A stretch of 64,000 bases of DNA from a virus. Shown one piece after another: positions 12,184 to 52,058 of the stretch. Location of the stretch: positions 1-64,000 of the IMG/VR virus record IMGVR_UViG_3300021518_000005; one strand, written 5' to 3'. A program made the position numbers and the translations under genes. Under the pieces are notes generated by a model that did no database searches, had not been told where the DNA came from, and saw only the letters and a list, made by a program, of their open reading frames with translations. Positions within the stretch are counted from its first letter, which is position 1. The number at the start of each line of letters is the position of its first letter.

Positions 12184-12711
12184 TCACACCGACCGCGTGA
12201 GTACGCGCAAGCAGTCACCGACCGTGATGAGCTTGAGTATCTTCAACTCGTTATACAATTGTTCAACCCATTCCGGCATGTGTGCTACCATCATATGCCA
12301 CGTTCCAACCATCCATGTAGCGACGTGCCATGATGCGAGCGACACTTGTTCACCAAAGGCCGATGCACGCCAAATGCTAATCGGGTTGTTATTGTGATGT
12401 CCAAAAAAACCAAGCACCGCTGTATGCTCAAACCGCTTGAGCCACGAGACAAACAGAGACTCTTGATAATCGACATCAGTATATTCAATTTTCAATCGTG
12501 GCTCAAAGCGCATCTTTGTAATCACCCAACCGCCGCGTAGTCTCGATTCAAGCTCTTGATATGGCTCCTTCTTGCGTGTATTCGCGTATGCCAGCTGTGA
12601 CATACGCATAAACACGTCATAGGATACGCGCCGCGATTGTCCATCAATCTCCTTGACAAGCGCGTATCCTGATTCAAACACAATACCGTCCCGAGTCACA
12701 ATACAATCCAT
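12184..12711 (-). CDS. Hypothetical protein
   Basis: GGAGG RBS; C-terminal half resembles the protein at 15236..15595. Confidence 0.6.
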   Translation of the reverse strand: MDCIVTRDGIVFESGYALVKEIDGQSRRVSYDVFMRMSQLAYANTRKKEPYQELESRLRGGWVITKMRFEPRLKIEYTDVDYQESLFVSWLKRFEHTAVLGFFGHHNNNPISIWRASAFGEQVSLASWHVATWMVGTWHMMVAHMPEWVEQLYNELKILKLITVGDCLRVLTRSV

Positions 12712-12739
12712 AAAAACCTCCGCAGGGGAATGCGGTCAA

Positions 12740-13997
12740 TGCCACGACGTTGACCGCCGCGACTTGCTTAGTGGCTATCTCTGTGGTACAATAGAACATA
12801 TGAACGTACAACGCACGATAACGATATGCATTGCTGATGACCCTGACCTGCGGGCAACGCTTGCAGGGTTCCAGGGCATTCAGCAGCGCATCTCTCAGGC
12901 GTGCTACAACGACGGCAGCCCGCTGTCCGCGCTGGCGTTGCATCGTGCGGTGTACGCACAGATCAAAGGCACGATCAGCAGTCAGCTGACCTGTACGGCC
13001 ATCCGGCTGGTTGCCGGAGCGTACGCTAGTGCCAAAGCGAACAAGAAGCCCGCGCAACGCCCGTTTGCGTTCAAGCGGCCTACGGCGCTGTTTCTGGTTG
13101 GCGAGCGCGGGCGCGATGCGCGCTTGTGTGATGATGGCACGCTCTCGATCTGGACGGTCGCAGGGCGCAAGCGCATTGCCTACAGCGTGCCGGATGCCTT
13201 CAAGCAGACGCTTGCCGACGCCGTCGAGATCGACAGTATGACCGTGATCGAACGCGACGGACGCCTGCTTGGTCGCGTGGTTGTCACGCTGCGCGTCCCT
13301 GATCCGAAGGGCATTCATCCGGTTGGGATTGACCTGAACGAAACGAACGCCCTGGTTGCCGTCGATCCTGATGGCACCACCCTGTTCGTGAGCGGGCGGG
13401 CGTTTAAGGTGCGGAACACCCGCACCCGCAAAACCCGCCGCCGTCTTCAAGCACAGCTTGCGACCCACAAGGCACAGAAACACGATACCCGGTCGATCCG
13501 GCGCGTGTTGAAACGGCTTGGTCGCAAACAGCGCAACCGCACGCGCACCTTCTGTCAACAAACCGCTGCCAAGCTGGTTGCCTGGGCGCACACCGACTCG
13601 GTGTTGGTGTTCGAGCGTCTGACACTGCCGCAGACCTCTAAAAAGCTGCGGGTGCGCAAGGGTACCCGCCGACGACTCAGCCAGTGGCAGCGCCGCTTGA
13701 TGCGTCAAAGTGTCACGAACACTGCCGAGCGGCGCGGGCTGCTGGTGGATGATGTCAATCCAGCCTACACCAGCCAGGATTGCTCGCGGTGTGGGTTGCG
13801 TGGTATCCGAAAGCGTCACGCTTTCTCCTGTCCTCACTGTGGGCACGAAGCCCACGCGGATGTGAATGCTGCAATCAACATCCGTCATCGCTATACCGTC
13901 CTACGGGGCGGTGGGCCGCTGTCAACCGGCCCTGAAGCCCTGTCGTCCGTTGCGGACAATGAGGGCAAGCTTTCGTCTTTAGGCGACAGTCGTTGAC
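12740..13997 (+). mobile_element. Non-autonomous IS200/IS605-family element (tnpB only)
   Basis: Clearly more GC-rich than its flanks; subterminal hairpin ends (left gccacgacgttgaccgccgcgacttgc, right gcaagctttcgtctttaggcgacagtcgttgac); no tnpA. The left boundary is uncertain by about 5 nt. Confidence 0.8.
12800..13996 (+). CDS. tnpB: TnpB RNA-guided endonuclease
   Basis: RuvC triad GIDLN / VFERL / HADVNAAINI; Zn ribbon CSRC...CPHC; NPAYTSQ. ATG lies 7 nt after TGGTACAAT (leaderless). Confidence 0.92.
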   Translation: MNVQRTITICIADDPDLRATLAGFQGIQQRISQACYNDGSPLSALALHRAVYAQIKGTISSQLTCTAIRLVAGAYASAKANKKPAQRPFAFKRPTALFLVGERGRDARLCDDGTLSIWTVAGRKRIAYSVPDAFKQTLADAVEIDSMTVIERDGRLLGRVVVTLRVPDPKGIHPVGIDLNETNALVAVDPDGTTLFVSGRAFKVRNTRTRKTRRRLQAQLATHKAQKHDTRSIRRVLKRLGRKQRNRTRTFCQQTAAKLVAWAHTDSVLVFERLTLPQTSKKLRVRKGTRRRLSQWQRRLMRQSVTNTAERRGLLVDDVNPAYTSQDCSRCGLRGIRKRHAFSCPHCGHEAHADVNAAINIRHRYTVLRGGGPLSTGPEALSSVADNEGKLSSLGDSR

Positions 13998-15235
13998 TAC
14001 GCTACTTCCTCGGTGTCTACATAATCCGCTTTATCCTTAATGTAACCCTCTAGGACTCCAAATTCCCAACTTTTTGCTTTGATGAATTGTGTGCCCTGAG
14101 TACTTTCGACACGCAAACAAACACCTTCTCGAATATGACGGCTATCAAGTTCGCTTGAGCCACTGATATGCGAATCGATAATCGTATCGACAATACTCAT
14201 CGTTTCTGTGTCATACACACACAACATGTCAATGTGCGGCACGGTCTGTAATCCAAGTTCTTGACAGCGCTGGTGCATCTGAAAATGAGACAATTCAGTA
14301 CCGTGTTGTGTGATGCGATAGACATACATACGACACGTTCCAGGCTCACAACCATAGGTGTAGCGCATGACCGGCCCATACTGCTCTAGTCCTGCTTTTT
14401 TGGTGTCGCCCTGCTCACCCATGATGAACTTCTCATCTGTCGTATAGCCGACGACCTCAAAATACAGAATCTCACCTGGCTTGAGTGTTATCCCGCTAAC
14501 GACATCGCGACGAAATTGCTCACTGCCATAATATCCGGCCTTGCCGTCTTCTAAGATCGTGCGTCGCGTCCCAATCACATACTGATATGTTTTAGCCTCG
14601 ACAGGGACACCGAGCCGCTGTAGCCAGCGCTCGTACCACTTTAGCGGGCGCTCCACTTCTACTAACCCATAACGCTGCGATGTGCCGTGCAACTTCTCGG
14701 AAACATACACTACGCTACCAGGCTGGATTGCATGCCGCGCATACTTGTACGGCTCTGTTTCGACATGCTCAGGAAAGGAGCTAATCACACGCTTCTGTAC
14801 GCGCTGGTGCTGTGCTTGCAGTGTCGCCGGTGTCATATATTTATTACAAATAGCAACACCCCCAAGACTATCGAGCGTGTCACCTTCTCGTAGCGTTTCG
14901 ATGGCGCTTGTATCAATTTCGGCAGCCGCAAGATACGACAACGGACACCAAAAGCCATCAGATTTGACGCCGCGCAATGACTGCGCTCGTACACGCCGGT
15001 TCTGCTCGAACATGCCACCGGCCTTATTGCCTTGCGCATCGACACGACGTACAAGATCGTTTGCTGCTGCAAATGCCTCCGATAGCTGTCCGTCTGTCGG
15101 AAAGAACAATCCGAGATCACCATCCTCTGCTGTCAATCCTACAACAACTTGATGGCCGTAAGCACTGGCAATTTTCAATCGATCTGCATTAGGATGAGGC
15201 CGCGTTGTAATACGGCACACAATAGCTTTATACAT
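13997..15235 (-). CDS. RNA ligase (DRB0094-like, with N-terminal OB domain)
   Basis: HPNADRL OB-fold start, nucleotidyltransferase motif I EKLHGTS, ILYFEVVG, REGVCL and KAKS motifs. Confidence 0.85.
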   Translation of the reverse strand: MYKAIVCRITTRPHPNADRLKIASAYGHQVVVGLTAEDGDLGLFFPTDGQLSEAFAAANDLVRRVDAQGNKAGGMFEQNRRVRAQSLRGVKSDGFWCPLSYLAAAEIDTSAIETLREGDTLDSLGGVAICNKYMTPATLQAQHQRVQKRVISSFPEHVETEPYKYARHAIQPGSVVYVSEKLHGTSQRYGLVEVERPLKWYERWLQRLGVPVEAKTYQYVIGTRRTILEDGKAGYYGSEQFRRDVVSGITLKPGEILYFEVVGYTTDEKFIMGEQGDTKKAGLEQYGPVMRYTYGCEPGTCRMYVYRITQHGTELSHFQMHQRCQELGLQTVPHIDMLCVYDTETMSIVDTIIDSHISGSSELDSRHIREGVCLRVESTQGTQFIKAKSWEFGVLEGYIKDKADYVDTEEVA

Positions 15236-28129: not shown

Positions 28130-28600
28130 ACCGTAACACCCCCTGCGTAAATCCACACCTACCCCTGTGCGTTTCCACACCCCCCCTGTGGATTCCCGCA
28201 CCCGCATTGCAAAGCCGTAAATCGCCAATTACACGGTATCATACGTATCTCTTCATGCCGTGAGAATGGCAGTATTCCGCGTCTCAATGCGAAGTGTGGA
28301 AACGCGCACCACCCCTGTGGAAATACACAGGTATTTCGACCATTTCGTCGGAAATTTCGACCATTTCGTCGGAAATTTCGACCATTTCGTCGGTAGAAGT
28401 AATCGGGGTTTGCGCCATTTCAAAGCCGTAAAATGCCACAAAATTTTAAGGGAATCATATACATGAATCATATACATGAATCATATACATTTTTTGCATT
28501 TTTTTTGCGCATTTTTTTTGCGCATTTTTTTTGCGGCACTAGCGCGCTGCGCTTGCTCGCTCACTGCGTTCGCGCTGCCCCAATTTCGCTTCGCTCTTTT
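28130..28600. repeat. Putative iteron-type replication origin
   Basis: CACC..CCCTG(T/C)G repeats (28135-28320); three tandem 21-mers atttcgaccatttcgtcggaa (28333-28393); three tandem AT-rich 13-mers gaatcatatacat (28452-28490); phased T-tracts (28490-28532). Confidence 0.6.
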
Positions 28601-33745: not shown

Positions 33746-35431
33746 ATGGGCCTAGAAGGATTTGTTGTTATATTTTTCTTTGTACTGTTTATTGTGCTGG
33801 TTATTCGCTCGCTTTTGCGGCCTGAGACCGCACACAGCGAATACAGCCGTGTAACGCCTACTACAATGCCTGTAGAGCGCGTTGACGTGGCTGAATATGG
33901 CAATCCAGCACTAGCCATCCTTGCATGGCTTTGGGCTGTATTTCGTATCGGTCTGTTCCATCTACAGCGGCGTCGGGAGAGGCCAGCACCAGCGATTACA
34001 AGCCAGGAATCTGTGTATGTTGTACAAGAGCGTGAATCTATGCCACGAGAGCGTGAGGCTGCATCAGAAATCCGGCAGCCGCAGGAAGTAAAGCAACCAG
34101 CACATCAGGCATCAGAAGGCCGTGTAAAGGACGTAGATACACGCGCAAACACCAAGGATCGCATGGCGCAGTTGCCAGCACATGCGCCCGATCCTGTTGA
34201 TGACACGCGGGATCGCTTGAATATTCCTGTGCTGTTTGACGGCACACAGTATCTCTATCATCGCATGGGCAGCGGCCACAAAGCTGTTCTTGGCACCACA
34301 AATGGAGGGAAGGGTAACTTTCTTCGCTACTATGCGCTTATGTCGCTCCTAGCAGGGCCTGAGAACATGCGGCTTGTCGTGTTCGATGCAAAGGGCGGTG
34401 CTGATTACTGGTGGATTCATCAGATCGATCATGCCGAACTGTATTTTACAGGCCCTGAAATACTCGATGAAGAAAAACCGATTGATGCACTTGAGGAAGG
34501 TCTCAAGGTGTATGTGCGTTTGATGTTGGAGCGCGGCCAAGCATTACAAGCCGCGCACGTAGAGAAAATTGATCTGTATAATGAAAAAGTAAGAAATGGA
34601 AGTGTAAATGGTTTTGAATGGCCGTACATTGTGGTTATTGTTGATGAAATTGCAGACTTCAGTAAAGAGGCAAAGAGTCTTGTCTCGACACTGACACGCA
34701 TGGGCCGCGCTACTGGTTTTGATATTCTCGTAGCAACGCAGCATGCTACTGTTGAGGCGATGAGCACACAGATCAGTCGCAACCTGACAAACCGTTTTGC
34801 TTTCCGCCTGAACAGCTCCGAGGGTACAGCCGTCGCCCTAGCGCGCACCAGCAATGATTACGGCAAGTATGAACCGAGCGTAATTGATCGGCCTGGTGTC
34901 GCCGTGTGGCGCGGCATGGGCGGCAATGAACAAATGGGTCTTGTTCCATTTGTTGATCCGCTGATGGATGGCTTGCTTGCACAGTTGACAAGCAAGTATG
35001 GCAAGTCAAGTCAAGCAAGTATGGCAAGTCAAGTACTTGCACAAGCAAGTGCAAAAACAAGTGTCGTGGCAAGTCGAAAACAAGTACTTGACTTGCACGG
35101 GCAAGGCGAAGCAAGTGACACACTTGACGACGATGCAAGTGCATACTTGTCTGAAGTACTTACCATACAAACGACTGATGCAAGTCAAGCAATCAGTCAA
35201 GGCAAGTCAAGGCAAGCTCCAGGCAAGTCAGAAGGAAATACAAAAACAAGTCGATGGCAAGGACTTGTTAACCAAGAAACACTTGCACAAGCAAGAGAGA
35301 CTGTGCAAGAGATGGGTGATAAGGTAGGCGTCGTGGAACTGGCTCAGGCATTGTATGGTAAAAGCACGGGTATCTATTTTTATGCAGCACAAGAACTTCT
35401 TGCATTGTTGGAAGGAGAAAAATTAACTTAA
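33746..35431 (+). CDS. FtsK/SpoIIIE (TraB-like) membrane-anchored DNA translocase
   Basis: N-terminal TM segments; Walker A GTTNGGKG; FDAKGG; Walker B IVVIVDE; RMGRATG..ILVATQ; RFAF; C-terminal gamma/wHTH-like helices. Confidence 0.85.
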   Translation: MGLEGFVVIFFFVLFIVLVIRSLLRPETAHSEYSRVTPTTMPVERVDVAEYGNPALAILAWLWAVFRIGLFHLQRRRERPAPAITSQESVYVVQERESMPREREAASEIRQPQEVKQPAHQASEGRVKDVDTRANTKDRMAQLPAHAPDPVDDTRDRLNIPVLFDGTQYLYHRMGSGHKAVLGTTNGGKGNFLRYYALMSLLAGPENMRLVVFDAKGGADYWWIHQIDHAELYFTGPEILDEEKPIDALEEGLKVYVRLMLERGQALQAAHVEKIDLYNEKVRNGSVNGFEWPYIVVIVDEIADFSKEAKSLVSTLTRMGRATGFDILVATQHATVEAMSTQISRNLTNRFAFRLNSSEGTAVALARTSNDYGKYEPSVIDRPGVAVWRGMGGNEQMGLVPFVDPLMDGLLAQLTSKYGKSSQASMASQVLAQASAKTSVVASRKQVLDLHGQGEASDTLDDDASAYLSEVLTIQTTDASQAISQGKSRQAPGKSEGNTKTSRWQGLVNQETLAQARETVQEMGDKVGVVELAQALYGKSTGIYFYAAQELLALLEGEKLT

Positions 35432-35930
35432 GTTTTTTCTGGAATGCTCAAAAAGGCCCTGAAATAGCCCATTTTGGGCGACTTAAGCCCCGCGAGATGA
35501 AACTTAAGTTTTTCTTTCGGGGCTTTCTTTTGGCTTTGTAGTCATTAAAATCGAGGCTTAAGTTTTTTATTAGGCGACTTAAGTTTTCCATGCGCTTTTC
35601 AAAAACTTAAGTCGCTTGTGGGCAAAAACTTAAGTTTTTGCAGACCATTTCAATCGGGCATAATCGTGTGCAGCAGACAAGAATCTCATGCTTGTACTTG
35701 ACTTGGCAAAAAACAAGTAGGGCAATGACTTGCACACTTGATACGCAATGCAAGTCAAACATTCTACTGGAACACTTGACTTGTTTTTCATCGAGCAATT
35801 CAGGCAAGTCAACTACTCATAAAGGCAAGTACAAAAACAAGTGAGGTGGCAAGTCCGGGCAAATCAAGTAGACAAGTCAAGCCTTGTTTCTTGACTTGCC
35901 AAAACAAGTACTTGACTTGTCTACTTGTCT
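34974..35930. repeat. Dense tripartite array of CAAGT/ACTTG and CTTAAG motifs
   Basis: More than 20 CAAGT/ACTTG copies at about 34980-35290, seven CTTAAG palindromes at about 35425-35640, and about 20 more CAAGT/ACTTG copies at about 35690-35930 (counted by eye). Confidence 0.85.
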
Positions 35931-36252
35931 AACGAGACAAGGCGCGTAACCTGCACAAGCGATATACTTTGTACTCCATGTCGCGCTTGCCTCGATTGCA
36001 ACTTGCACAGCACGCTACCACATTGGCCTCAGTATATCCGTGTCGATTATTCACACGATCAATACCTTGATATACAACGGTGTTGATTTTGTATTGCGGC
36101 TGGCAGTACACGCCAGATGGAGCACAGCCGCAGTAGTGGCACAGCTGCTGAATGAGTGTATCGAACACATCCATATCAAGCTCGAATGACAGATCACGGC
36201 GCTTTGCGTCATACTTGTAACGGCGGAAAAGATGTTTGACGACTGGCAGCAT
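35929..36252 (-). CDS. HNH-like endonuclease
   Basis: CHYCG...GIDRVNN..GY...NVVACCASCN..K. Confidence 0.75.
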   Translation of the reverse strand: MLPVVKHLFRRYKYDAKRRDLSFELDMDVFDTLIQQLCHYCGCAPSGVYCQPQYKINTVVYQGIDRVNNRHGYTEANVVACCASCNRGKRDMEYKVYRLCRLRALSR

Positions 36253-36291
36253 GGTAATTGTCCTTGCTCGATATGTATGTTCCCTGACACA

Positions 36292-36409
36292 ATCTTACCA
36301 TATCGGTAAGATACTTGTCTAGTGACAAAATACTCACATGATCAACCAAAACTCTTTACACTTGGCATTTCCTGAAGAAGTTTGACATTTCTTACCGCTA
36401 TGGTATACT
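36292..36409. promoter_or_regulatory. Divergent operator-bearing promoters
   Basis: Minus strand: CTTACC-N5-GGTAAG at 36294-36310. Plus strand: TTGACA(36382)-16 nt-TATACT(36404) containing CTTACC-N5-GGTATA, upstream of the ncRNA cluster. Confidence 0.75.
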
Positions 36410-36477
36410 GTGGGTGAGCCGAACGCAAGACTAGTCCCGAGGGTGCAGCGAGGTCATACGTTGATTAGTAGGCCCAT

Positions 36478-36567
36478 GGGAGCGCAGTAGGTTTCGATAG
36501 GGCGCGATGAGCACGAAAGCGCACAGCTCCGCTCTAGACGCGAGTGCAACTCTCGCCGCTTCCACCA
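36478..36567 (+). ncRNA. tmRNA-like RNA consisting of the tRNA-like domain only
   Basis: Acceptor stem GGGAGCG/CGCTTCC with G3.U70; encoded ACCA end; stemless D-loop (GGTTTCGA); P2a TAGGGCG/CGCTCTA; GAC linker; T-arm GCGAG-TGCAACT-CTCGC. Confidence 0.75.
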
Positions 36568-36573
36568 GTTAGG

Positions 36574-37007
36574 GCATACTAGGCATGTCTAGGTTAACCG
36601 CTTTGAATGGCACCGTGCCTCTCTGTCATTCAACCTGTATGGAGTAAGCAGGAACAAAGGGATGTAAACGCCTTGCTGTAGGTTCCTTGTGGGCCATGAG
36701 TAGAACGGATAAGACCGCCGTTGGAATGACGGCGCGGGATCGGTAATCCGCACTCGTAATCTCTGCCGATCTGCTGACAAGTGGAGAACTTGTCACTGTA
36801 CAGGTAATGATCGGTGCAGCGCGGTAAAAAAACAGCTATGTGTGCATGTGGGTGAGGCTGTCGGTGTTGGGCCGTAGGGAGTACTATATAACGATAGCGT
36901 TGTATAACCTGATCGTATCCGTCGCTAATCCAACTAGGCGAGGCGCATGCACACACCGCGCATTCACGGCGACACCTGCCAAGCATTCTAGATACTGCAA
37001 GTGGTGC
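36574..37007 (+). ncRNA. Putative large structured ncRNA (~430 nt)
   Basis: No credible ORF; many hairpins plus long-range pairings that close the 5' and 3' ends; lies between the tmRNA-like RNA and a tRNA. Confidence 0.55.
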
Positions 37008-37036
37008 GACACGTAGCGGAGAGACGCTACTCTTGC

Positions 37037-37126
37037 GGGCTTAAAGCGTAGTAGGTAAACTGCGTGCCGACTGATCAGCGGCCCTGTGTAAGACACGGGT
37101 AGAGGGTTCGAGTCCTTCAAAGCCCA
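37037..37126 (+). tRNA. Atypical tRNA-like gene (GAT anticodon, long variable arm)
   Basis: Acceptor GGGCTT/AAGCCC; extended D-stem; anticodon arm GCCG..CTGATCA..CGGC; variable arm CCTGTG/CACGGG; T-arm GAGGG-TTCGAGT-CCTTC. Confidence 0.6.
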
Positions 37127-37169
37127 ACAATATTGTTATTATAAAAATCAAAGGAGTGACTGTATACGT

Positions 37170-37475
37170 ATGGCTGATGTGGTGGCTGCATTTGGGGATT
37201 TTGGTGTTTTTAGCCATGCCGCGCCAAATATGGCCGGTACTGTTCGTGAGCGTGATCTGGAATTTGTCGATGCAACGGTGTCGTTATCGAATGTCTCCCC
37301 GTCAAGTTCGATTGATCTTACTAATCCTGAGCTACTGACTTTCAAGGTTGCCAAAGATGAAGTGTTTGGTACGCTTTCTGCACAGTTGACGGTGCTGCTC
37401 ACGGGAGAGGAACAAAGAGAATTGAAGGCGATTGCAGAACGCATTGAGCGGCGTGTGAAGGCGCTTATCAGGTAA
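37170..37475 (+). CDS. Hypothetical protein
   Basis: AAGGAG RBS upstream; plausible amino-acid composition. Confidence 0.55.
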   Translation: MADVVAAFGDFGVFSHAAPNMAGTVRERDLEFVDATVSLSNVSPSSSIDLTNPELLTFKVAKDEVFGTLSAQLTVLLTGEEQRELKAIAERIERRVKALIR

Positions 37476-37567
37476 CATGTTTCCTCTTTGTTGGGATGGT
37501 TGACGATAACGCTAGCCATCCCAACTATTGAAATAATCCTAGAATATCTCCAAGGAGTTGATGATCT

Positions 37568-39142
37568 CTGAATCGCACTGGGATTGCTGGTGCTGTCGCC
37601 GCCGTTATTGTTACTGTTGTTATTGTTCTCCCGCATGGTTCCTCGACTGATGCGCCTCCGCCTGTATTTGTGACAGCTCACGTCATAACGGCTACAGCAG
37701 AATTGACCACTACACATCACGAAGATCCTACAAACACGCCAGAAGCGCCTACAGCCACCGAAACAGCTACGCTAGAGCCAACACACACCACTGAACCTAC
37801 AATCCCTCCTGGGCCGTCTGAGAAACCTACGGAAGTCGTTACAAGCACTGCTACGACCACGACAACAAATACCGTAGATTCGACAGCAACATCTACGGCT
37901 GCCGCAACTTTTACACCCACGTCAGAAGCCTCTATAACGCCCACAGAAACACCTACAGCGAGCGCCACGGCCACTACGACGCCCACGCCTACGGCGGTTC
38001 CTACAGCCACTCCTGTGGTGTTCCTGGAAACGTTTGACGGATTGCCATCACAACCATTAGCCTTCTCAAGCAGCCAATGGGATATTATGGCGCACAGCCG
38101 TGATCCGTTGTATCGACAAGTTCCTGAGCCAATGGATGCGCAACATGACGGTGCAACATGCGATGTCCATGGCGCGCACACGATCACAACCTACACACAA
38201 ACCGCGTTCATCTGCCGTAATCATCTCATGACGGCTATTAAGGGAACTGACTACGCGATTGTGTACCTTGCGCCTAATGCCATGCTCGATTGGTCGCAAA
38301 ACACAGCTACACTGCGTTTTGACGTTTCAACCATGCGAACGACAAGCCGCGATTGGTGGGATATTTGGATCACGCCATGGGGCGATGTGTTGTCGTATCC
38401 CTCTGATGGATCGTTTCCCGATGGGAATGGCGAGCCGCGCAACGCCATCCACATTCGCATGAATCAGTTCAACGGCAAGACCACGTTTAACGTCAATCAA
38501 GTCGTGAATTATGTCTCATCGCCGGTGCCTGGTTCCATTGTCGGTGGCCGCGTCTACGAGAATGTATTAACACCGGATTATGTGCGGCGCGACACGTTTG
38601 AGCTACGCCTATCGAGCACACACATCTCGTTTTGCATGCCCGACTATACTCACTGTTGGGCTGATAATCTACCGTTGGCTACGTCGCTCGACTGGAATAG
38701 CGGCGTGGTACAGATCGGTCATCACTCCTACAATCCGCTGAAGGGCTGCATCGCGGGGCGTACACCATGTCAGCCAAATACCTGGCATTGGGATAATGTC
38801 CGCATGGAGCCAGCATTGCCATTCCAAATCATTCGCAGCGCGCCGCGTGCCGCATCGCTCACAATTACGAACGACACATTGACACTTGAGCGGCCTGCAC
38901 CAGCAGGCGCTATCGTTCGATTTTTGGCTATCGGGAATGCTATCGAGGTGTCATTCGACGGTGGCAATACATGGCAACCAGCCGTCAAGCGTGAGCAGGA
39001 AAACAATCAGCCGGAACGGTTCAGCTCGTATTGGATGCCGATACCGGAAGGCACCACAGCAATCAAGGTTCGCGGCCAACGTTGGACAAGCAGCAGCGCA
39101 GGTGATTGGTGGGTTCACTCGCTCAGTGTGTGGGCGCGCTAG
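37568..39142 (+). CDS. Secreted or membrane-anchored protein with Thr/Pro linker and beta-rich C-terminal domain
   Basis: Frame is open from CTG 37568, 10 nt after AAGGAG, giving an N-terminal hydrophobic segment (NRTGIAGAVAAVIVTVVIVL); long PT/TA linker; FLETFDG...HWDNV domain. Confidence 0.7.
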   Translation: MNRTGIAGAVAAVIVTVVIVLPHGSSTDAPPPVFVTAHVITATAELTTTHHEDPTNTPEAPTATETATLEPTHTTEPTIPPGPSEKPTEVVTSTATTTTTNTVDSTATSTAAATFTPTSEASITPTETPTASATATTTPTPTAVPTATPVVFLETFDGLPSQPLAFSSSQWDIMAHSRDPLYRQVPEPMDAQHDGATCDVHGAHTITTYTQTAFICRNHLMTAIKGTDYAIVYLAPNAMLDWSQNTATLRFDVSTMRTTSRDWWDIWITPWGDVLSYPSDGSFPDGNGEPRNAIHIRMNQFNGKTTFNVNQVVNYVSSPVPGSIVGGRVYENVLTPDYVRRDTFELRLSSTHISFCMPDYTHCWADNLPLATSLDWNSGVVQIGHHSYNPLKGCIAGRTPCQPNTWHWDNVRMEPALPFQIIRSAPRAASLTITNDTLTLERPAPAGAIVRFLAIGNAIEVSFDGGNTWQPAVKREQENNQPERFSSYWMPIPEGTTAIKVRGQRWTSSSAGDWWVHSLSVWAR

Positions 39143-39143
39143 T

Positions 39144-39382
<239 letters not shown>

Positions 39383-41312: not shown

Positions 41313-41392
41313 CAATTGCTTCGACCTGAACACAGTATAAATCAAACAACTTGATTGTTGAATGATAAATACCTGATATTTAGGTGATAATT
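41313..41392. repeat. Direct repeat copy 2 (promoter cassette)
   Basis: Near-identical to 40023-40102. Confidence 0.85.
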
Positions 41393-42497
41393 ACTCAGAT
41401 GTGTCCTGCAACTTCCTAGCCACATCCTCCAATGCGGCGCGCTCATCAGCGCTGTACGAATGGATGTACACGCGCTCCGTGATGCTGGTAGTGCTATGGC
41501 CGAGTACATCACGCGCCACTGTCGAGGCATACCCGCTTTGGGCGATAAGCGATGCTACCGCATGGCGAAGATCATGTAATCGGATCGATTGCGGCAGCCC
41601 GATTCGCTTCAAGTCGGCCTTGAACGACCGCCAGAGATTATGCGGGTTGTACGGTGTGCCAACTTCAGATGGAAATACAAGTTGATGATCTTTCCATCCT
41701 GGTGCATCGCGCTCCTCATTTTGCACAGCCCTATGCACCTCAAGTGTTTGTACAAGCCACGGCGCAAGCGGAAGCGTTCTAACACCGCTCTCGGTTTTTG
41801 CATCAGCAATATGCAGCGTGCCAGCTTGCATATCAACATCGGCCCACTTCAGCGCGATTAATTCGCCACGTCGAAGGCCGAGTGATGCGCCAATGACATA
41901 GAGTGCATAGCGCCGTGTACCGCGTGCGCCATCGAGTAGTTGTCGGATATGCTCAATGGATACCGGCTGCACTTTGTACTTTCTTGGTTTTGGCACATCA
42001 ACATGTTCAGCCACGTTCCGTTGCACCATTTCGAGACGTACACCGTCGTTGAGTGCTCGACTCAAAACACCATGCGCGTATTCGATGGTACGAGTACTCA
42101 AGAGTGCGTCACGTTTCTTAGAACGCTTGTCACGCAGTTCTGAGAGCCAATGCTGTATATCTTGTGGCCGGAGCTTTACAAGTTTGATATGGCCGATATG
42201 CGGCTCGATATGCAGTCGAGACATATCACGGTAGCTTTCGTAGGTTCGCGCCTTGCCTGGTTTGACCGTATGCTCTAGCCAATACGCCATGTACTGCGTG
42301 ACTGTCATTTTATTGTCGATTGGCTCAGAGCCACGATTAAGTTCAGCCAAGATATTCGCTTGCCAGGTTGCAACTTCCTTGCGTGTCTTGCCGTATTTCC
42401 ACTTGCGTTTCCCATTGCCAAGTGATACAGCTGCGTACCATGTCCCGTCTTTGCGCTGCCCAATAGTGCCTTCATTTTGACCGCGTTTCTTAGGCAT
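41391..42497 (-). CDS. int: Tyrosine integrase
   Basis: N-terminal RGQNEGTI arm-binding domain; GLRRGE, KT, HDLRH, LGHS and catalytic Tyr (TERVY). Confidence 0.95.
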   Translation of the reverse strand: MPKKRGQNEGTIGQRKDGTWYAAVSLGNGKRKWKYGKTRKEVATWQANILAELNRGSEPIDNKMTVTQYMAYWLEHTVKPGKARTYESYRDMSRLHIEPHIGHIKLVKLRPQDIQHWLSELRDKRSKKRDALLSTRTIEYAHGVLSRALNDGVRLEMVQRNVAEHVDVPKPRKYKVQPVSIEHIRQLLDGARGTRRYALYVIGASLGLRRGELIALKWADVDMQAGTLHIADAKTESGVRTLPLAPWLVQTLEVHRAVQNEERDAPGWKDHQLVFPSEVGTPYNPHNLWRSFKADLKRIGLPQSIRLHDLRHAVASLIAQSGYASTVARDVLGHSTTSITERVYIHSYSADERAALEDVARKLQDTSE

Positions 42498-48117: not shown

Positions 48118-50826
48118 CTAGCACGCGGTATACTCACAGGCTGTACACTTTGTACAGCCCTCCGATTTCATGAGACTAAATTGCTTGCGCGGGCATGGGC
48201 ATAGCATCCCCGTAGCCTTGTGTGGCGTTTTAGCTACTGGTGTCTCTGCCTCGACTGCCCGATATGTGGTGCTGTACTCCGCTAGCACCTTGCCTATTGC
48301 ATCCGGCACACTAGCTACCCGATTCAGCCCAAAACCAATGCTAGTACTTCCGCCGATTCCACGCAATTGCTCGCTAATCAAGTCAACACCAATGCCACAA
48401 CGCAGCGCAAGCGACACGAGACGGCCTAGCGCCTCGGTGAAAGCACTCAAGTCACTTCCTGCTCTTCCGATAACTGCAAACGTCTCGACGGGCGCTCCAT
48501 CCATCTCTGTCACAAACAGATGGAGATCACCTAATGGTGTTCTTACGCGATGCGCGGTCGCTGGTAGCTCATCAGGCACATCAATCGGCCATGACCGTAG
48601 CTCCTGTACCTCGACAATTTCCGGCCATTCTGCTGATTCAGTACTGCTTGTTGTGTTGCCTGTTGATAACACCTGCCCTGAGCGTGAGCCGTCTCGATAG
48701 ACCGTAATACCCTTACATCCGAGCCGATATGCTAGCTCGTATGCCTGTACAACATCCTCAATGGTAGCTGATTGCGGCGCGTTAATTGTTTTACTGATGG
48801 CACTATCAACATGGCGCTGAAATGCGGCCTGCATGCGTACATGCCACGACGGATCAATCTCGTTTGCTGTTCGGAATAGGCGTTGCACGGCTGCCGGAAT
48901 TTCAGGATGTTGAATACTTCCCGTGGCTGCAATGCGCTCCATTAACTCATCAGTGTACCATCCCTCCCGTTGAGCGCGTGCCACAAAATCAGCATGCACA
49001 TCAGGAAGCTGCATACCGGCCTGGTTACGCATAAACGCCACGGCAAATAATGGTTCGACACCACCTGAGCAGCCAGCAATGATACTGATACTGCCAGTCG
49101 GTGCAACAGTCGTCACATTACAATGCCGCATCTCGATATGTGGGTGAATGCGCCGCCCTTGACTATCTCTTGCACATGTCTCATCCGGCCCCCAGGTGCT
49201 TTCGATCCATTCAGGAAACACGTTGCGTTCATCGGCAAGATCGCTACTGGCGGCATGTGCTATAGTCTGAATACGACTCATCACATAATCAGCAAGTTCA
49301 AGCGCATCCTCACTATCATACGGAATATTGAGTTTAATCAAGGCGTCGGCCCAACCCATCACACCAAGGCCAATGCGCCGAATGCTCTGTGCCAAACTTG
49401 TAATAGCTGGCAGTGGATAGGTATTTGCGTCAATGACATTATCGAGGAAGCGAACGGCAATACGTACTGTATCCTCCAATCCTGTCACGTCTATCGAGCG
49501 CGTATCCTCGTCAACAAATGCACTGATATTGATACTGCCAAGATTACATACATCATTTGCAAGAAGCGCTTGCTCACCGCAATTATGTACCAAAAACCCT
49601 GTCACCAAGGAGCCATTATGGGCTTTCTTGTCACATATAAAGAAATTATGCGCCTCCTCCACAGTGCCATCATAAACATCGGCGCAACCATCAGGAATGA
49701 CCGACATAACAACATGGTTGCTATTGCATTGCTCAATAAAAGATCTTTCACTGCCAAATAAACGCGCTAAAACCTTACGACCGGGCAGGTTTTCTTTACG
49801 TGCGTGCGCAAGCCATTCGGTTAATGTAATAGGCCGACCAAGAACATTTGATAGTTTCACGCCCTGATGTAGTACATCATCGGCCTGAACATCCTTGTAT
49901 TGGCTATTCATTGCACCTAACGCATGAAACTGCTTGTGTTCCTTGCTTCCCATAACCGTCAAATTATCCAGTCTGTTGTCTGTAAAGTCACCATTGACGT
50001 GATGAACAACCTGATCAATTGATAGAGTTTCCCCTGTAACGTACTCCATGAGTAAACGATAATGGGGACGGAACACGCTCAAGCCATTGCGCACCATCAT
50101 ATCTCCACGACGTGCGCCTTGCTTAATGAAATGAGGGTAGAGTCGATCACCAACGCAAAGATCACTCGCCTTCTTCCATGTACCATCACGCAACATAAAC
50201 AAATGATCGGGCGTACATTGTACAAAATCTAAATCACGACCAACAGTAGTGCCTCCGCGTTTGTCATACGTTACACGTACAAGTGGCTTGTTTTTGCCTG
50301 TTTTGTGAATATTGTACATGCGTCGAACAACAGTTTTGTCGTTCAACAGACAGTACACCAAAGGTTCTGTGCCAACAAGATCAACAAATGGCTTTGGCCC
50401 TTCCACAGTTGAAACAAGTGTGTCGCCCGTAAAGCAAGGATTACACGCCTCGTAACGTCCGAGATGCGGCACGGGATTGTAGTAGTTTACTCTATCAATA
50501 AAGAATAATCCTGGTTCACCCGTTTCCCATGCACATTGTGCAATAAGACTAAATACAAGACGCGCTTGAATGATAGCAGGATAGCCCGCTTGAACCAAGA
50601 CATCACCTGTAAGTGGATGAGTCATTGTCTCGTTTGGTACATGCACATCGCCTGTACGCGGATTCATTAGCATGTACGGCGCATCATCATATACGGCCTG
50701 CATAAAATCATCAGTGATAGCCACTGAAATGTTGAAATTCGTCAGCTTTGTTGTGTCGCGCTTGCATGTGATAAACCTCAGAATATCAGGATGTGTACAA
50801 TGCAGGATCGCCATGTTCGCCCCACG
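48118..50826 (-). CDS. nrdJ: Class II (B12-dependent) ribonucleotide reductase, exon 2 (contains an intein)
   Basis: RGANM, WETGEPGL, NP[intein]CGEQ, CNLGSIN, RRIGLGVMG, VAPTGS, ISKTIN, KGITVYRDGSR; C-terminal TSCPD-like domain and Zn-finger-like tail. Confidence 0.92.
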   Translation of the reverse strand, partial: RGANMAILHCTHPDILRFITCKRDTTKLTNFNISVAITDDFMQAVYDDAPYMLMNPRTGDVHVPNETMTHPLTGDVLVQAGYPAIIQARLVFSLIAQCAWETGEPGLFFIDRVNYYNPVPHLGRYEACNPCFTGDTLVSTVEGPKPFVDLVGTEPLVYCLLNDKTVVRRMYNIHKTGKNKPLVRVTYDKRGGTTVGRDLDFVQCTPDHLFMLRDGTWKKASDLCVGDRLYPHFIKQGARRGDMMVRNGLSVFRPHYRLLMEYVTGETLSIDQVVHHVNGDFTDNRLDNLTVMGSKEHKQFHALGAMNSQYKDVQADDVLHQGVKLSNVLGRPITLTEWLAHARKENLPGRKVLARLFGSERSFIEQCNSNHVVMSVIPDGCADVYDGTVEEAHNFFICDKKAHNGSLVTGFLVHNCGEQALLANDVCNLGSINISAFVDEDTRSIDVTGLEDTVRIAVRFLDNVIDANTYPLPAITSLAQSIRRIGLGVMGWADALIKLNIPYDSEDALELADYVMSRIQTIAHAASSDLADERNVFPEWIESTWGPDETCARDSQGRRIHPHIEMRHCNVTTVAPTGSISIIAGCSGGVEPLFAVAFMRNQAGMQLPDVHADFVARAQREGWYTDELMERIAATGSIQHPEIPAAVQRLFRTANEIDPSWHVRMQAAFQRHVDSAISKTINAPQSATIEDVVQAYELAYRLGCKGITVYRDGSRSGQVLSTGNTTSSTESAEWPEIVEVQELRSWPIDVPDELPATAHRVRTPLGDLHLFVTEMDGAPVETFAVIGRAGSDLSAFTEALGRLVSLALRCGIGVDLISEQLRGIGGSTSIGFGLNRVASVPDAIGKVLAEYSTTYRAVEAETPVAKTPHKATGMLCPCPRKQFSLMKSEGCTKCTACEYTAC
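49582..50436 (-). mobile_element. Intein (285 aa) with HNH endonuclease, at the RNR active-site NP|CGE
   Basis: Starts CFTGDT; block B CTPDHLF; HNH motif VHHVNGDFTDNRLDNL; block F VYDGTV..AHNF; ends VHN followed by +1 Cys. Confidence 0.93.
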
Positions 50827-52058
50827 CATATGTGTTACACTGCATAAGCAGGACTAGATCATTTCTGTCTAGTTCTTGCGTTTTCACGCAAGATCGGATC
50901 ATATCATCAGGTTACACTAGTAAATTTTGCCCTTTTGCGCTCTAAGTGTATACTTGAACACCTATACATCATTGAACCAATTGCGTCGATAGTCTTGGGA
51001 TTGGAAAATTCTATTAGGCTGGTACCCTTTTTGGGTTGGATACCACCCCGTAACACCAGAATGCCCTGCTCTGTCAGGAATTGGGCTAAACCACTTACAA
51101 ATGGTTGACCACATGTAAAGGATAGTTTACATTTCTGATATGGCCCATATGTTTTATCTCTAACAGTATGAAAGCGCTTGTATATCGACAAACACCCATC
51201 GGCATCAAAAACACCCCGAATATAAGCCCAAGAAAGTATATGATCTGAAAATGCAATAAATGGTTCATTGCCGGATTTACGACCGCATGGCATGCCAGCA
51301 CTGATTAAGTCGTTGCAAATTTGCGTATTATTTACGCTTAATCTCCACTTTGCTTGCTCTGTGGGATGGCCTAATGAAGACACAACAAGTCGCACCGCAT
51401 CTGAATCCCCCAAGCATGTGGCAATGCGCTGAAGATGAGGCGCATCAACATCGGCCACTTGCAAAGACAGCCGTTTGGAAGTTTTTCGATCTGTTATATG
51501 CCCATCGGCTGTAAGAAAACCCAAAAGATAGGCTTGTTCGTCATTGGTAATGTCGTGGAAATAGTGCGTATTAAATGTTCTGACAACCGATTTTAATCTA
51601 CCCGCAATGCTTGGTTGTCGTCTAGGTAGGCCATACAGTTCCATGTATGATACCACTGTATTGCGTCCTACGCCATAAAAACGGGCTATATCCACCGTAG
51701 ACCACTGTTCAATGATATATAGTTGTTCAAGTACATCTCGCGTAAGCACATGAGCCAATTTTCGTGCAATCCCGTCGCGTGCCAACTGACCTTGAATATT
51801 GTCAGCCCCTACTTTCAACTGTTTCATATCCCCCCTTTACGGTTTGTATTTTGTATTATACCGTATCGGTAAGAAATGATCAAGTTGATTTTGGTGATCT
51901 CTGAACGTTTTACCGTGTCACCACGGCAACTTCGCTGCTGATTGTCCAATCCCCATATTTTTCAAACAATCACGCTTGCCATTACTAGCTACGTTGTTGC
52001 AATGAGGCTCTAAGGATGTTCCAGCAATTCACGCGATTTATCGTGCGCCAGTAGGTTA
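50827..52058 (-). mobile_element. Group I intron in nrdJ
   Basis: Splicing restores KQGGVR|RGANM. P1 GTGCGT/GCGCAC has a U.G pair at the 5' site; terminal G; P element AATTGCTGGAA; R TCAGAGATCA pairs with S GATATGATCC (P7). Confidence 0.92.
50907..51827 (-). CDS. Intron-encoded LAGLIDADG homing endonuclease
   Basis: Two motifs, YLLGFLTADG and YIRGVFDADG, plus an N-terminal HTH. Confidence 0.9.
   Translation of the reverse strand: MKQLKVGADNIQGQLARDGIARKLAHVLTRDVLEQLYIIEQWSTVDIARFYGVGRNTVVSYMELYGLPRRQPSIAGRLKSVVRTFNTHYFHDITNDEQAYLLGFLTADGHITDRKTSKRLSLQVADVDAPHLQRIATCLGDSDAVRLVVSSLGHPTEQAKWRLSVNNTQICNDLISAGMPCGRKSGNEPFIAFSDHILSWAYIRGVFDADGCLSIYKRFHTVRDKTYGPYQKCKLSFTCGQPFVSGLAQFLTEQGILVLRGGIQPKKGTSLIEFSNPKTIDAIGSMMYRCSSIHLERKRAKFTSVT

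Follow-up and report, generated by a model that had tools for sequence, protein, structure and literature searches.

Bacteriophage T4 encodes, within its tRNA cluster, the stable non-tRNA RNAs known as species 1 and species 2 (rnaC and rnaD), which measure roughly 100-140 nt. Spacers with long processing stems are a feature of rRNA and tRNA operons; in the rRNA operon precursor such stems are cut by RNase III and the excised product is a functional RNA. The ends of RNase P RNA also pair. Larger RNAs such as GOLLD and ROOL lie beside tRNA genes and/or in prophages, and ROOL has an average length of 581 nt, according to the account given in PMC5737381. A tmRNA gene reduced to its tRNA-like domain (TLD) has a published precedent in phage DS6A (Hudson, Lau and Williams 2014, PMC4131195), whose tmRNA is described in that report as little more than a tRNA-like domain and is suggested there to inhibit trans-translation by titrating SmpB.

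The window analysed here, the first 64 kb of an 83,227-nt IMG/VR virus record, contains between a TLD-only tmRNA mimic and a tRNA-like gene a stretch (36574-37007) that an earlier note had singled out, with correct coordinates, as an unassigned, highly structured RNA. The record is that of a tailed, temperate phage and includes genes for a tape measure protein, a portal, a major head protein and a terminase. From the arrangement of its surroundings, the stretch appears to occupy the middle of a single operon, placed at the attP-proximal end of the phage (Table 1). The putative operon would run from a promoter through the tmRNA-TLD mimic, the candidate RNA and a Sec-like tRNA(GAU) to two protein genes, and would be mostly non-coding.

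Table 1. Features of the candidate RNA, its predicted fold and its surroundings (positions in the window)
Feature	Position	Strand	Remarks
Sigma-70-type promoter	36382-36409	+	TTGACA, 16-nt spacer, TATACT, TG before the -10 box (extended -10); 11/12 matches
5' leader of precursor	36410-36477	+	Putative transcription start
TLD-only tmRNA mimic	36478-36567	+	90 nt; RF00023 aligned end to end
Candidate RNA	36574-37007	+	ORF-free; full inter-tRNA segment 36568-37036
Terminal stem, 5' strand	36574-36593	+	About 18 pairs with small bulges
Second helix	36599-36611 with 36958-36971	+	Predicted fold
5' arm	36612-36825	+	214 nt; long irregular helix ending in a multi-branch junction
Linker joining the arms	36826-36838	+	UAAAAAAACAGCUA; 13 nt, A-rich, predicted single-stranded
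3' arm	36839-36955	+	117 nt; 12-bp stem closing a three-way junction
Terminal stem, 3' strand	36987-37007	+	Partner of 36574-36593
Small GC hairpin just before the tRNA	37013-37030	+	z -2.76; 0/200 shuffles as good
tRNA-like gene, GAU anticodon	37037-37126	+	90 nt; ARAGORN: Ile GAT
Gene for 101-aa protein	37170-37475	+	
Gene for 490-aa protein	37670-39142	+	Thr/Pro-rich linker
attP, 3' part of tRNA-Gly(UCC)	39238-39309	+	Weak Rfam tRNA match
Hairpin and T-run after attP	39320-39356	+	Would end the operon
Tyrosine integrase gene	41391-42497		Same record as attP

The earlier note had suggested membership of a class such as GOLLD or ROOL, or of a new one. Large RNAs beside tRNA genes in phages and prophages are indeed a known kind in the account of PMC5737381, and the context is of that sort, since the TLD and the tRNA adjoin the stretch and an integrase gene and attP lie in the same record. 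As GOLLD and ROOL are described there, the stretch resembles them in being large, ORF-free, multi-branched, part of a prophage-type element, adjacent to tRNA-type genes and probably co-transcribed with them. However, it is shorter than ROOL (~430-470 nt versus the average of 581 nt given there), is known from one sequence, has a host in the phylum Chloroflexota and matches the covariance model of neither class at E<=10, which leaves the suggested membership without support.

In cmscan searches with lax filters, the 4227 models of Rfam 15 gave no match at E<=10 to the 469 nt of the inter-tRNA segment (36568-37036) alone. A search of 1.1 kb gave nothing inside the stretch, the match to RF00023 stopping at 36567. 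Thus, as far as these models see, the stretch lies outside every described RNA class: GOLLD, ROOL, RNase P RNA, the tmRNA families and the introns of groups I and II are all removed, as are riboswitches, known self-cleaving ribozymes and tRNA remnants. The previous remark that it carries no RNase P or intron core motif agrees with this, as no such model matches at E<=10; a comparison by eye found none of the conserved segments of RNase P RNA or intron cores, and the paired ends of the stretch were the only feature to resemble P1. Two other origins were rejected: derivation from the host tmRNA, with which only short words are common (7-13 nt in a blastn-short comparison), and a decayed tRNA array, no tRNA-clan match falling inside the stretch. 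No paralogue was found elsewhere in the 83-kb genome.

Divergence from a described large class (GOLLD, ROOL, a group I or II intron, RNase P RNA or some other) would be compatible with the size of the stretch and with its ends, which pair as those of RNase P RNA do. A place beside tRNA-like genes in a prophage-type element is also what is written of GOLLD and ROOL (PMC5737381). Such an origin is nevertheless extremely improbable, given that none of the 4227 models matched the segment at E<=10 or fell inside the stretch in the 1.1-kb search, and that the conserved RNase P and intron-core segments went unmatched by eye.

The stretch is non-coding. Five ORFs of 56-118 aa overlap it on the two strands, and under a codon model built from the codon usage of 26 long genes of the phage their per-codon log-likelihoods are -0.10 to -0.30. 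For the 26 real genes the value is 0.26 +/- 0.06, with a minimum of 0.08, and for wrong-frame controls it is -0.47 +/- 0.17. The five ORFs thus score as wrong frames, which bears out the earlier statement that no convincing ORF is present. One of them, a 118-aa ORF on the minus strand, is rich in Cys, His and Arg and has no Pfam or PHROGs match.

The folding of the plus strand exceeds that of shuffled sequences. Its MFE is -156.4 kcal/mol compared with -141.8 +/- 4.6 kcal/mol for 100 dinucleotide shuffles (z -3.18, 1 of 100 as good), and a separate set of 60 shuffles gave z -2.2 (2 of 60 as good). The ensemble is also unusually well defined, with a diversity (base-pair distance) of 48.7 versus 108 +/- 32 in shuffles and a positional entropy of 0.48 versus 1.05 +/- 0.30, each value being reached by 1 of 60 shuffles. 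All 13 coding windows examined (434 nt, sense strand of long genes) are less extreme, at z +0.43 to -1.49. The minus strand is unremarkable (z -0.27, 37 of 100 shuffles as good), and this favours an RNA read from the plus strand and disfavours DNA palindromes; 22 of the 157 predicted pairs are G.U pairs, which the opposite strand is unable to form. The epithet 'highly structured' has only moderate support. Against it stands a cruder comparison, in which MFE was regressed on G+C over 552 genome windows and the stretch ranks only 48th (z -1.41). Sub-domains have z scores of -0.5 to -2.8, and one of them, 36649-36698, folds no better than shuffles (z -0.50). These predictions moderately favour structure beyond chance, and the observation is real, if less striking than first described.

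That the stretch is no RNA gene is improbable. It would then either act as DNA, through operator or binding sites or as an origin, or be a protein gene that is small or degraded. The hairpin GACAAGT-N5-ACTTGTC does reuse the CAAGT/ACTTG words of a repeat array ~1 kb upstream, the 118-aa minus-strand ORF exists, and an antisense promoter-like site with 10 of 12 matches (37166-37138, minus strand: TATACA, 17-nt spacer, TATAAT) points into the tRNA and the stretch. However, GACAAGT (36776) and ACTTGTC (36788) occur once each in the stretch, a further ACTTGTC lying at 36313, upstream of the promoter, and palindromes fold equally on both strands, whereas only the plus strand exceeds shuffles. A protein gene is opposed by the wrong-frame codon usage of all the ORFs and by their lack of family matches. 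The promoter, the tRNA-like flanks, the non-coding score and the strand-specific folding excess all count for an RNA made from the plus strand.

In the predicted fold the terminal stem would close a Y-shaped structure of two arms joined by the A-rich linker, and most helices have probabilities of at least 0.88. The 5' arm contains hairpins at 36717-36733 and 36776-36794, and its helices have probabilities of 0.88-1.0, except for 36657-63/36682-88 at 0.61; the z scores of its sub-domains run from -0.5 to -2.7. The 3' arm (z -2.24, 5 of 200 shuffles as good) has probabilities of 0.95-0.98. Seven helices had been proposed before, and all of these complementarities exist; four occur in the thermodynamic ensemble of 36568-37037, and three have probabilities of ~0 because their strands have better partners. 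The four are the core of the terminal stem (36586-93/36987-94, 8 bp, mean pair probability 0.90), cgccgtt/gacggcg (0.99), tgacaagt/acttgtca (1.0) and gtgtgcatg/catgcacac (0.98). The helix ttgaatggca/tgtcattcaa is displaced by a pairing of UGAAUG with CAUUCA at 36961-66 (0.93), and gcgcggt/accgcgc by one of GCGCGGU with ACCGUGC at 36612-18 (0.89); the third is ccgatc/gatcgg. Co-transcriptional folding could still favour the local alternatives, and the fold, being predicted from one sequence in which several strands have a choice of partners, is uncertain. Two loop-loop pairings, GUUGGA/UCCAAC (36720-25 with 36929-34) and ACGGAUA/UAUCCGU (36705-11 with 36915-21), were set aside because, on a rough estimate, chance could well produce pairings of such shortness.

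The 'mini-tmRNA' named upstream of the stretch is confirmed by its RF00023 score of 49.2 bits, the cut-off being 47. With this model, ordinary host tRNAs obtain 39-47 bits, and the margin is thus small (2-10 bits). Visible in the alignment are G3.U70, the GGUUUCGA box, the T arm and the encoded CCA; the tag frame is absent, and 21 nt replace the 306 message and pseudoknot positions of RF00023. This left neighbour is the same kind of TLD-reduced phage tmRNA as that of DS6A, which was located at 28478-28560 (43.2 bits) inside a 213-nt gap. In DS6A, only ~120 nt separate the TLD from the next gene and neither a large RNA nor a tRNA adjoins it, whereas the ~430-nt RNA is present, as far as seen, only in the Chloroflexales phage. 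The idea that a large RNA is a general partner of TLD-only genes was rejected, DS6A being without one.

Three of 151 Chloroflexales genomes carry, beside their normal tmRNA, an extra mini-tmRNA of 131-134 nt, in four copies that score 55.6-69.7 bits; ARAGORN reads the 5-residue tag AFNAT in three of the four. One copy (genome G142, C14:30478-30611) has its own promoter-like site and is flanked by a Cas6e-type gene on one side and a gene for a ClpP-like protease on the other. The protease gene is overlapped by a longer frame that encodes M48 peptidase domains and extends past it. The sequence of these mini-tmRNAs is unrelated to that of the phage TLD.

Because the stretch adjoins a TLD without any tag, it might be the message half of a split tmRNA, with a resume codon and a tag frame, lying beside or paired with the TLD-only RNA and giving stalled ribosomes a tag specified by the phage. 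The earlier note had raised a tag frame supplied in trans in this way, and the frames, the host tmRNA and the tmRNA models all fail to support it. Among the peptides translated from the three plus-strand frames, none finishes with ...AA-stop or looks like the host tag ANNHTRVQPRLALAA, no tmRNA-family model matches the stretch at E<=10, and likeness to the host tmRNA is limited to chance words of 7-9 nt. The acceptor stem of the TLD is moreover closed on its own, with no piece missing as in two-piece tmRNAs. A split tmRNA is thus highly unlikely.

On the other side of the stretch, the flanking tRNA that had been reported is found by ARAGORN. Its body has a 6-7-bp D stem and a long variable arm, it lacks an encoded CCA, and its best Rfam alignment is to tRNA-Sec, at 23.5 bits, below the cut-off of 47. 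The base of its acceptor stem has an A.A mismatch. The gene is reminiscent of allo-tRNAs (PMC5389517).

The promoter is the best of six sites within 35400-37800, and the candidate RNA starts 165 nt downstream of it on the same strand. The encoded CCA end of the TLD precedes the stretch by 6 nt, and the 5' end of the tRNA follows it after 29 nt. The stretch is probably transcribed and processed together with these tRNA-like neighbours: release by their processing would fit a layout of strong promoter, CCA end and tRNA 5' end. The plus-strand transcript would yield a non-coding RNA of ~430-470 nt, its 5' side being freed by maturation of the CCA end of the TLD and its 3' side by an RNase P cut at the 5' end of the tRNA. 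Like T4 species 1 and species 2, the stretch would then be a non-tRNA RNA inside a polycistronic tRNA-type transcript that is released by tRNA-processing enzymes, whereas it is three to four times larger than they are.

Immediately upstream of the operon promoter, on the opposite strand, is a free-standing gene (35929-36252, minus strand) for a 107-aa HNH/endonuclease VII-like protein, and its codon usage is atypical for the phage (0.018 versus 0.26). The gene for the 101-aa protein has normal codon usage. The tetranucleotide CTAG, which the phage genome avoids, occurs seven times in the 840 nt of 36300-37140, the block holding the whole RNA unit, versus 1.36 expected at the genome rate, an enrichment of about fivefold.

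The main rival explanation makes the stretch a structured spacer or leader that has no function in itself: it would separate the two tRNA-like RNAs, present them for processing and then be degraded. Its compact fold might also prevent Rho from ending transcription within the untranslated leader, 750 nt long, of the two downstream genes. A terminator scan found no terminator-like site between the tRNA and the two downstream protein genes, and the stretch is therefore part of a long 5' untranslated region. (The scan missed the hairpin that follows attP because its loop is long.) In the MFE structure of the whole transcript, the leader, which on its own folds no better than shuffles (z +0.30), pairs at 36416-36430 with 37031-37042 and at 36431-36438 with 36572-36582. 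The resulting nested leader-trailer stems enclose the TLD and the whole segment, and one partner, 37031-37042, extends into the first bases of the tRNA. In this model they look like excision stems: the ends of the stretch would pair over ~18 bp and the leader and trailer of the unit would pair too, a geometry resembling that of rRNA operons. A spacer would also suit a stretch without relatives or conserved motifs, whose genome-wide MFE rank, 48 of 552, is unexceptional. However, 430-470 nt is in our judgement much longer than a spacer would require, the ensemble is unusually well defined, with 1 of 60 shuffles as ordered, and the phage is otherwise densely coding. A mere spacer is thus possible, if on balance unlikely.

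Searches for relatives were negative. With 11-nt words, blastn against 50,697 phage records gave no match either to 36300-37200 (E<=1e-5) or to 36568-37036 (E<=10). BLAST searches of Chloroflexota genomes, 969 in all although the three samples overlap, gave matches in 5 of 401 class genomes (E<=0.01), 1 of 167 order genomes (E<=0.001) and 1 of 401 phylum genomes. Each match consisted of a single short segment, 17-48 nt long, that no other collinear segment accompanied, and those inspected lie in coding sequence. Single-sequence covariance models of the 3' arm and of the 5' arm found nothing in 151 order genomes; the window itself, used as a control for the former only, was recovered at 146 bits. 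In the 29 of 80 viral records with portals 38-45% identical that are at least 16 kb long, only words of 14-24 nt recurred. Exact-pattern scans of IMG/VR or metagenomes were no different: 24 loci, all chance, for a 15-mer of the TLD; none for a 21-mer of the tRNA; none for a 19-mer of the candidate RNA and one chance locus for a 17-mer; and none in two metagenome scans. As no homologue was found, there is no covariation and no family is definable.

Neighbouring protein genes are orphans too: in a set of 5.8 billion proteins, neither the FtsK-like protein nor the 101-aa protein has a relative. The 490-aa protein belongs to a cellular Chloroflexi family with a best identity of 48%. The best portal relative is 51% identical and lies on a contig of at most 2.6 kb. 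Scans of IMG/VR with the integrase and the FtsK-like protein gave no relative, and a single-protein scan with the portal gave one, at 24% identity. The sequences thus indicate a phage lineage that is barely sampled, since the flanking protein genes are orphans and the nearest portal is only 51% identical. Relatives of the integrase with 35-46% identity occur in 26 of the 167 order genomes, whose whole genomes were included in the RNA search; in prophages related by their integrase, the RNA operon would lie at the far end.

A 48-nt stretch of attP recurs unchanged in the complete tRNA-Gly(UCC) genes of two Chloroflexales MAGs, neither of which has a prophage there, and on the strength of this identity with intact genes the host of the phage is very probably a member of the Chloroflexales. 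These MAGs have an ordinary 365-nt tmRNA. The stretch is present in four listed sequencing runs, all of them DNA contigs, from two studies. The second, also of sediment, holds the same phage, and the parts of the stretch that it covers are identical, so that there is no sequence variation to read; the one difference, T>C at 36381, lies beside the -35 box.

Other genes of the phage include an RNA ligase of family PF09414 and a TnpB. The TnpB gene (12653-13996) encodes Cas12f1-like TNB, OrfB_IS605 and RuvC-like domains in a patch of raised G+C (56%), and the RNA ligase gene (13997-15235, minus strand) directly adjoins it. A second transposase gene lies at 66620-68236 of the record. The large subunit of ribonucleotide reductase (48118-50829, minus strand) is interrupted by an intein with an HNH endonuclease domain.

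With these alternatives weighed, the reading we prefer, to which we give a probability of roughly 0.45, is that the stretch is a discrete, processed, stable structured RNA of a new family, of which it would be the only known member. Several points count against it: without a homologue, the single sequence offers no evidence of selection on the structure, and by analogy with DS6A, with its ~120-nt gap, a large RNA would not be a regular partner of TLD mimics. The rank of 48th by regressed MFE, the alternative partners of several strands and the sub-domain that does not exceed shuffles weigh in the same direction. Talk of a 'new class' is a hypothesis resting on one sequence. The likeliest function of such an RNA, once released and if stable as presumed, would be that of a protein-binding or scaffold RNA working with its two translation-related neighbours, and it may be active in the lysogen or in early infection. 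The attP-proximal end would be the usual place of extras expressed in the lysogen, as lysogenic-conversion genes usually sit next to attP.

A more ambitious version appears doubtful. The stretch would then found a new class of large ornate phage RNAs, and its transcript would also contain a tmRNA decoy and a Sec-shaped tRNA with an Ile anticodon. Expressed in the lysogen as one module, the three RNAs would re-tune how Chloroflexales hosts rescue ribosomes and decode, with the large RNA as a scaffold or sponge for the host factors engaged by its neighbours (such as SmpB, EF-Tu or a synthetase).

The present value of the stretch is that of a lead resting on one sequence without relatives, not of an established class. 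The kind is known, as PMC5737381 describes large RNAs that adjoin tRNA genes on prophage-type elements, and the particular company of this one is new. The setting is unusual, with a tmRNA mimic, a large RNA and a non-canonical tRNA under one strong promoter next to attP. If real, the candidate RNA would add an example from a Chloroflexota phage to the short list of large structured RNAs of bacteria and phages, and it would suggest a practice among temperate phages of grouping several RNAs that target host translation quality control.
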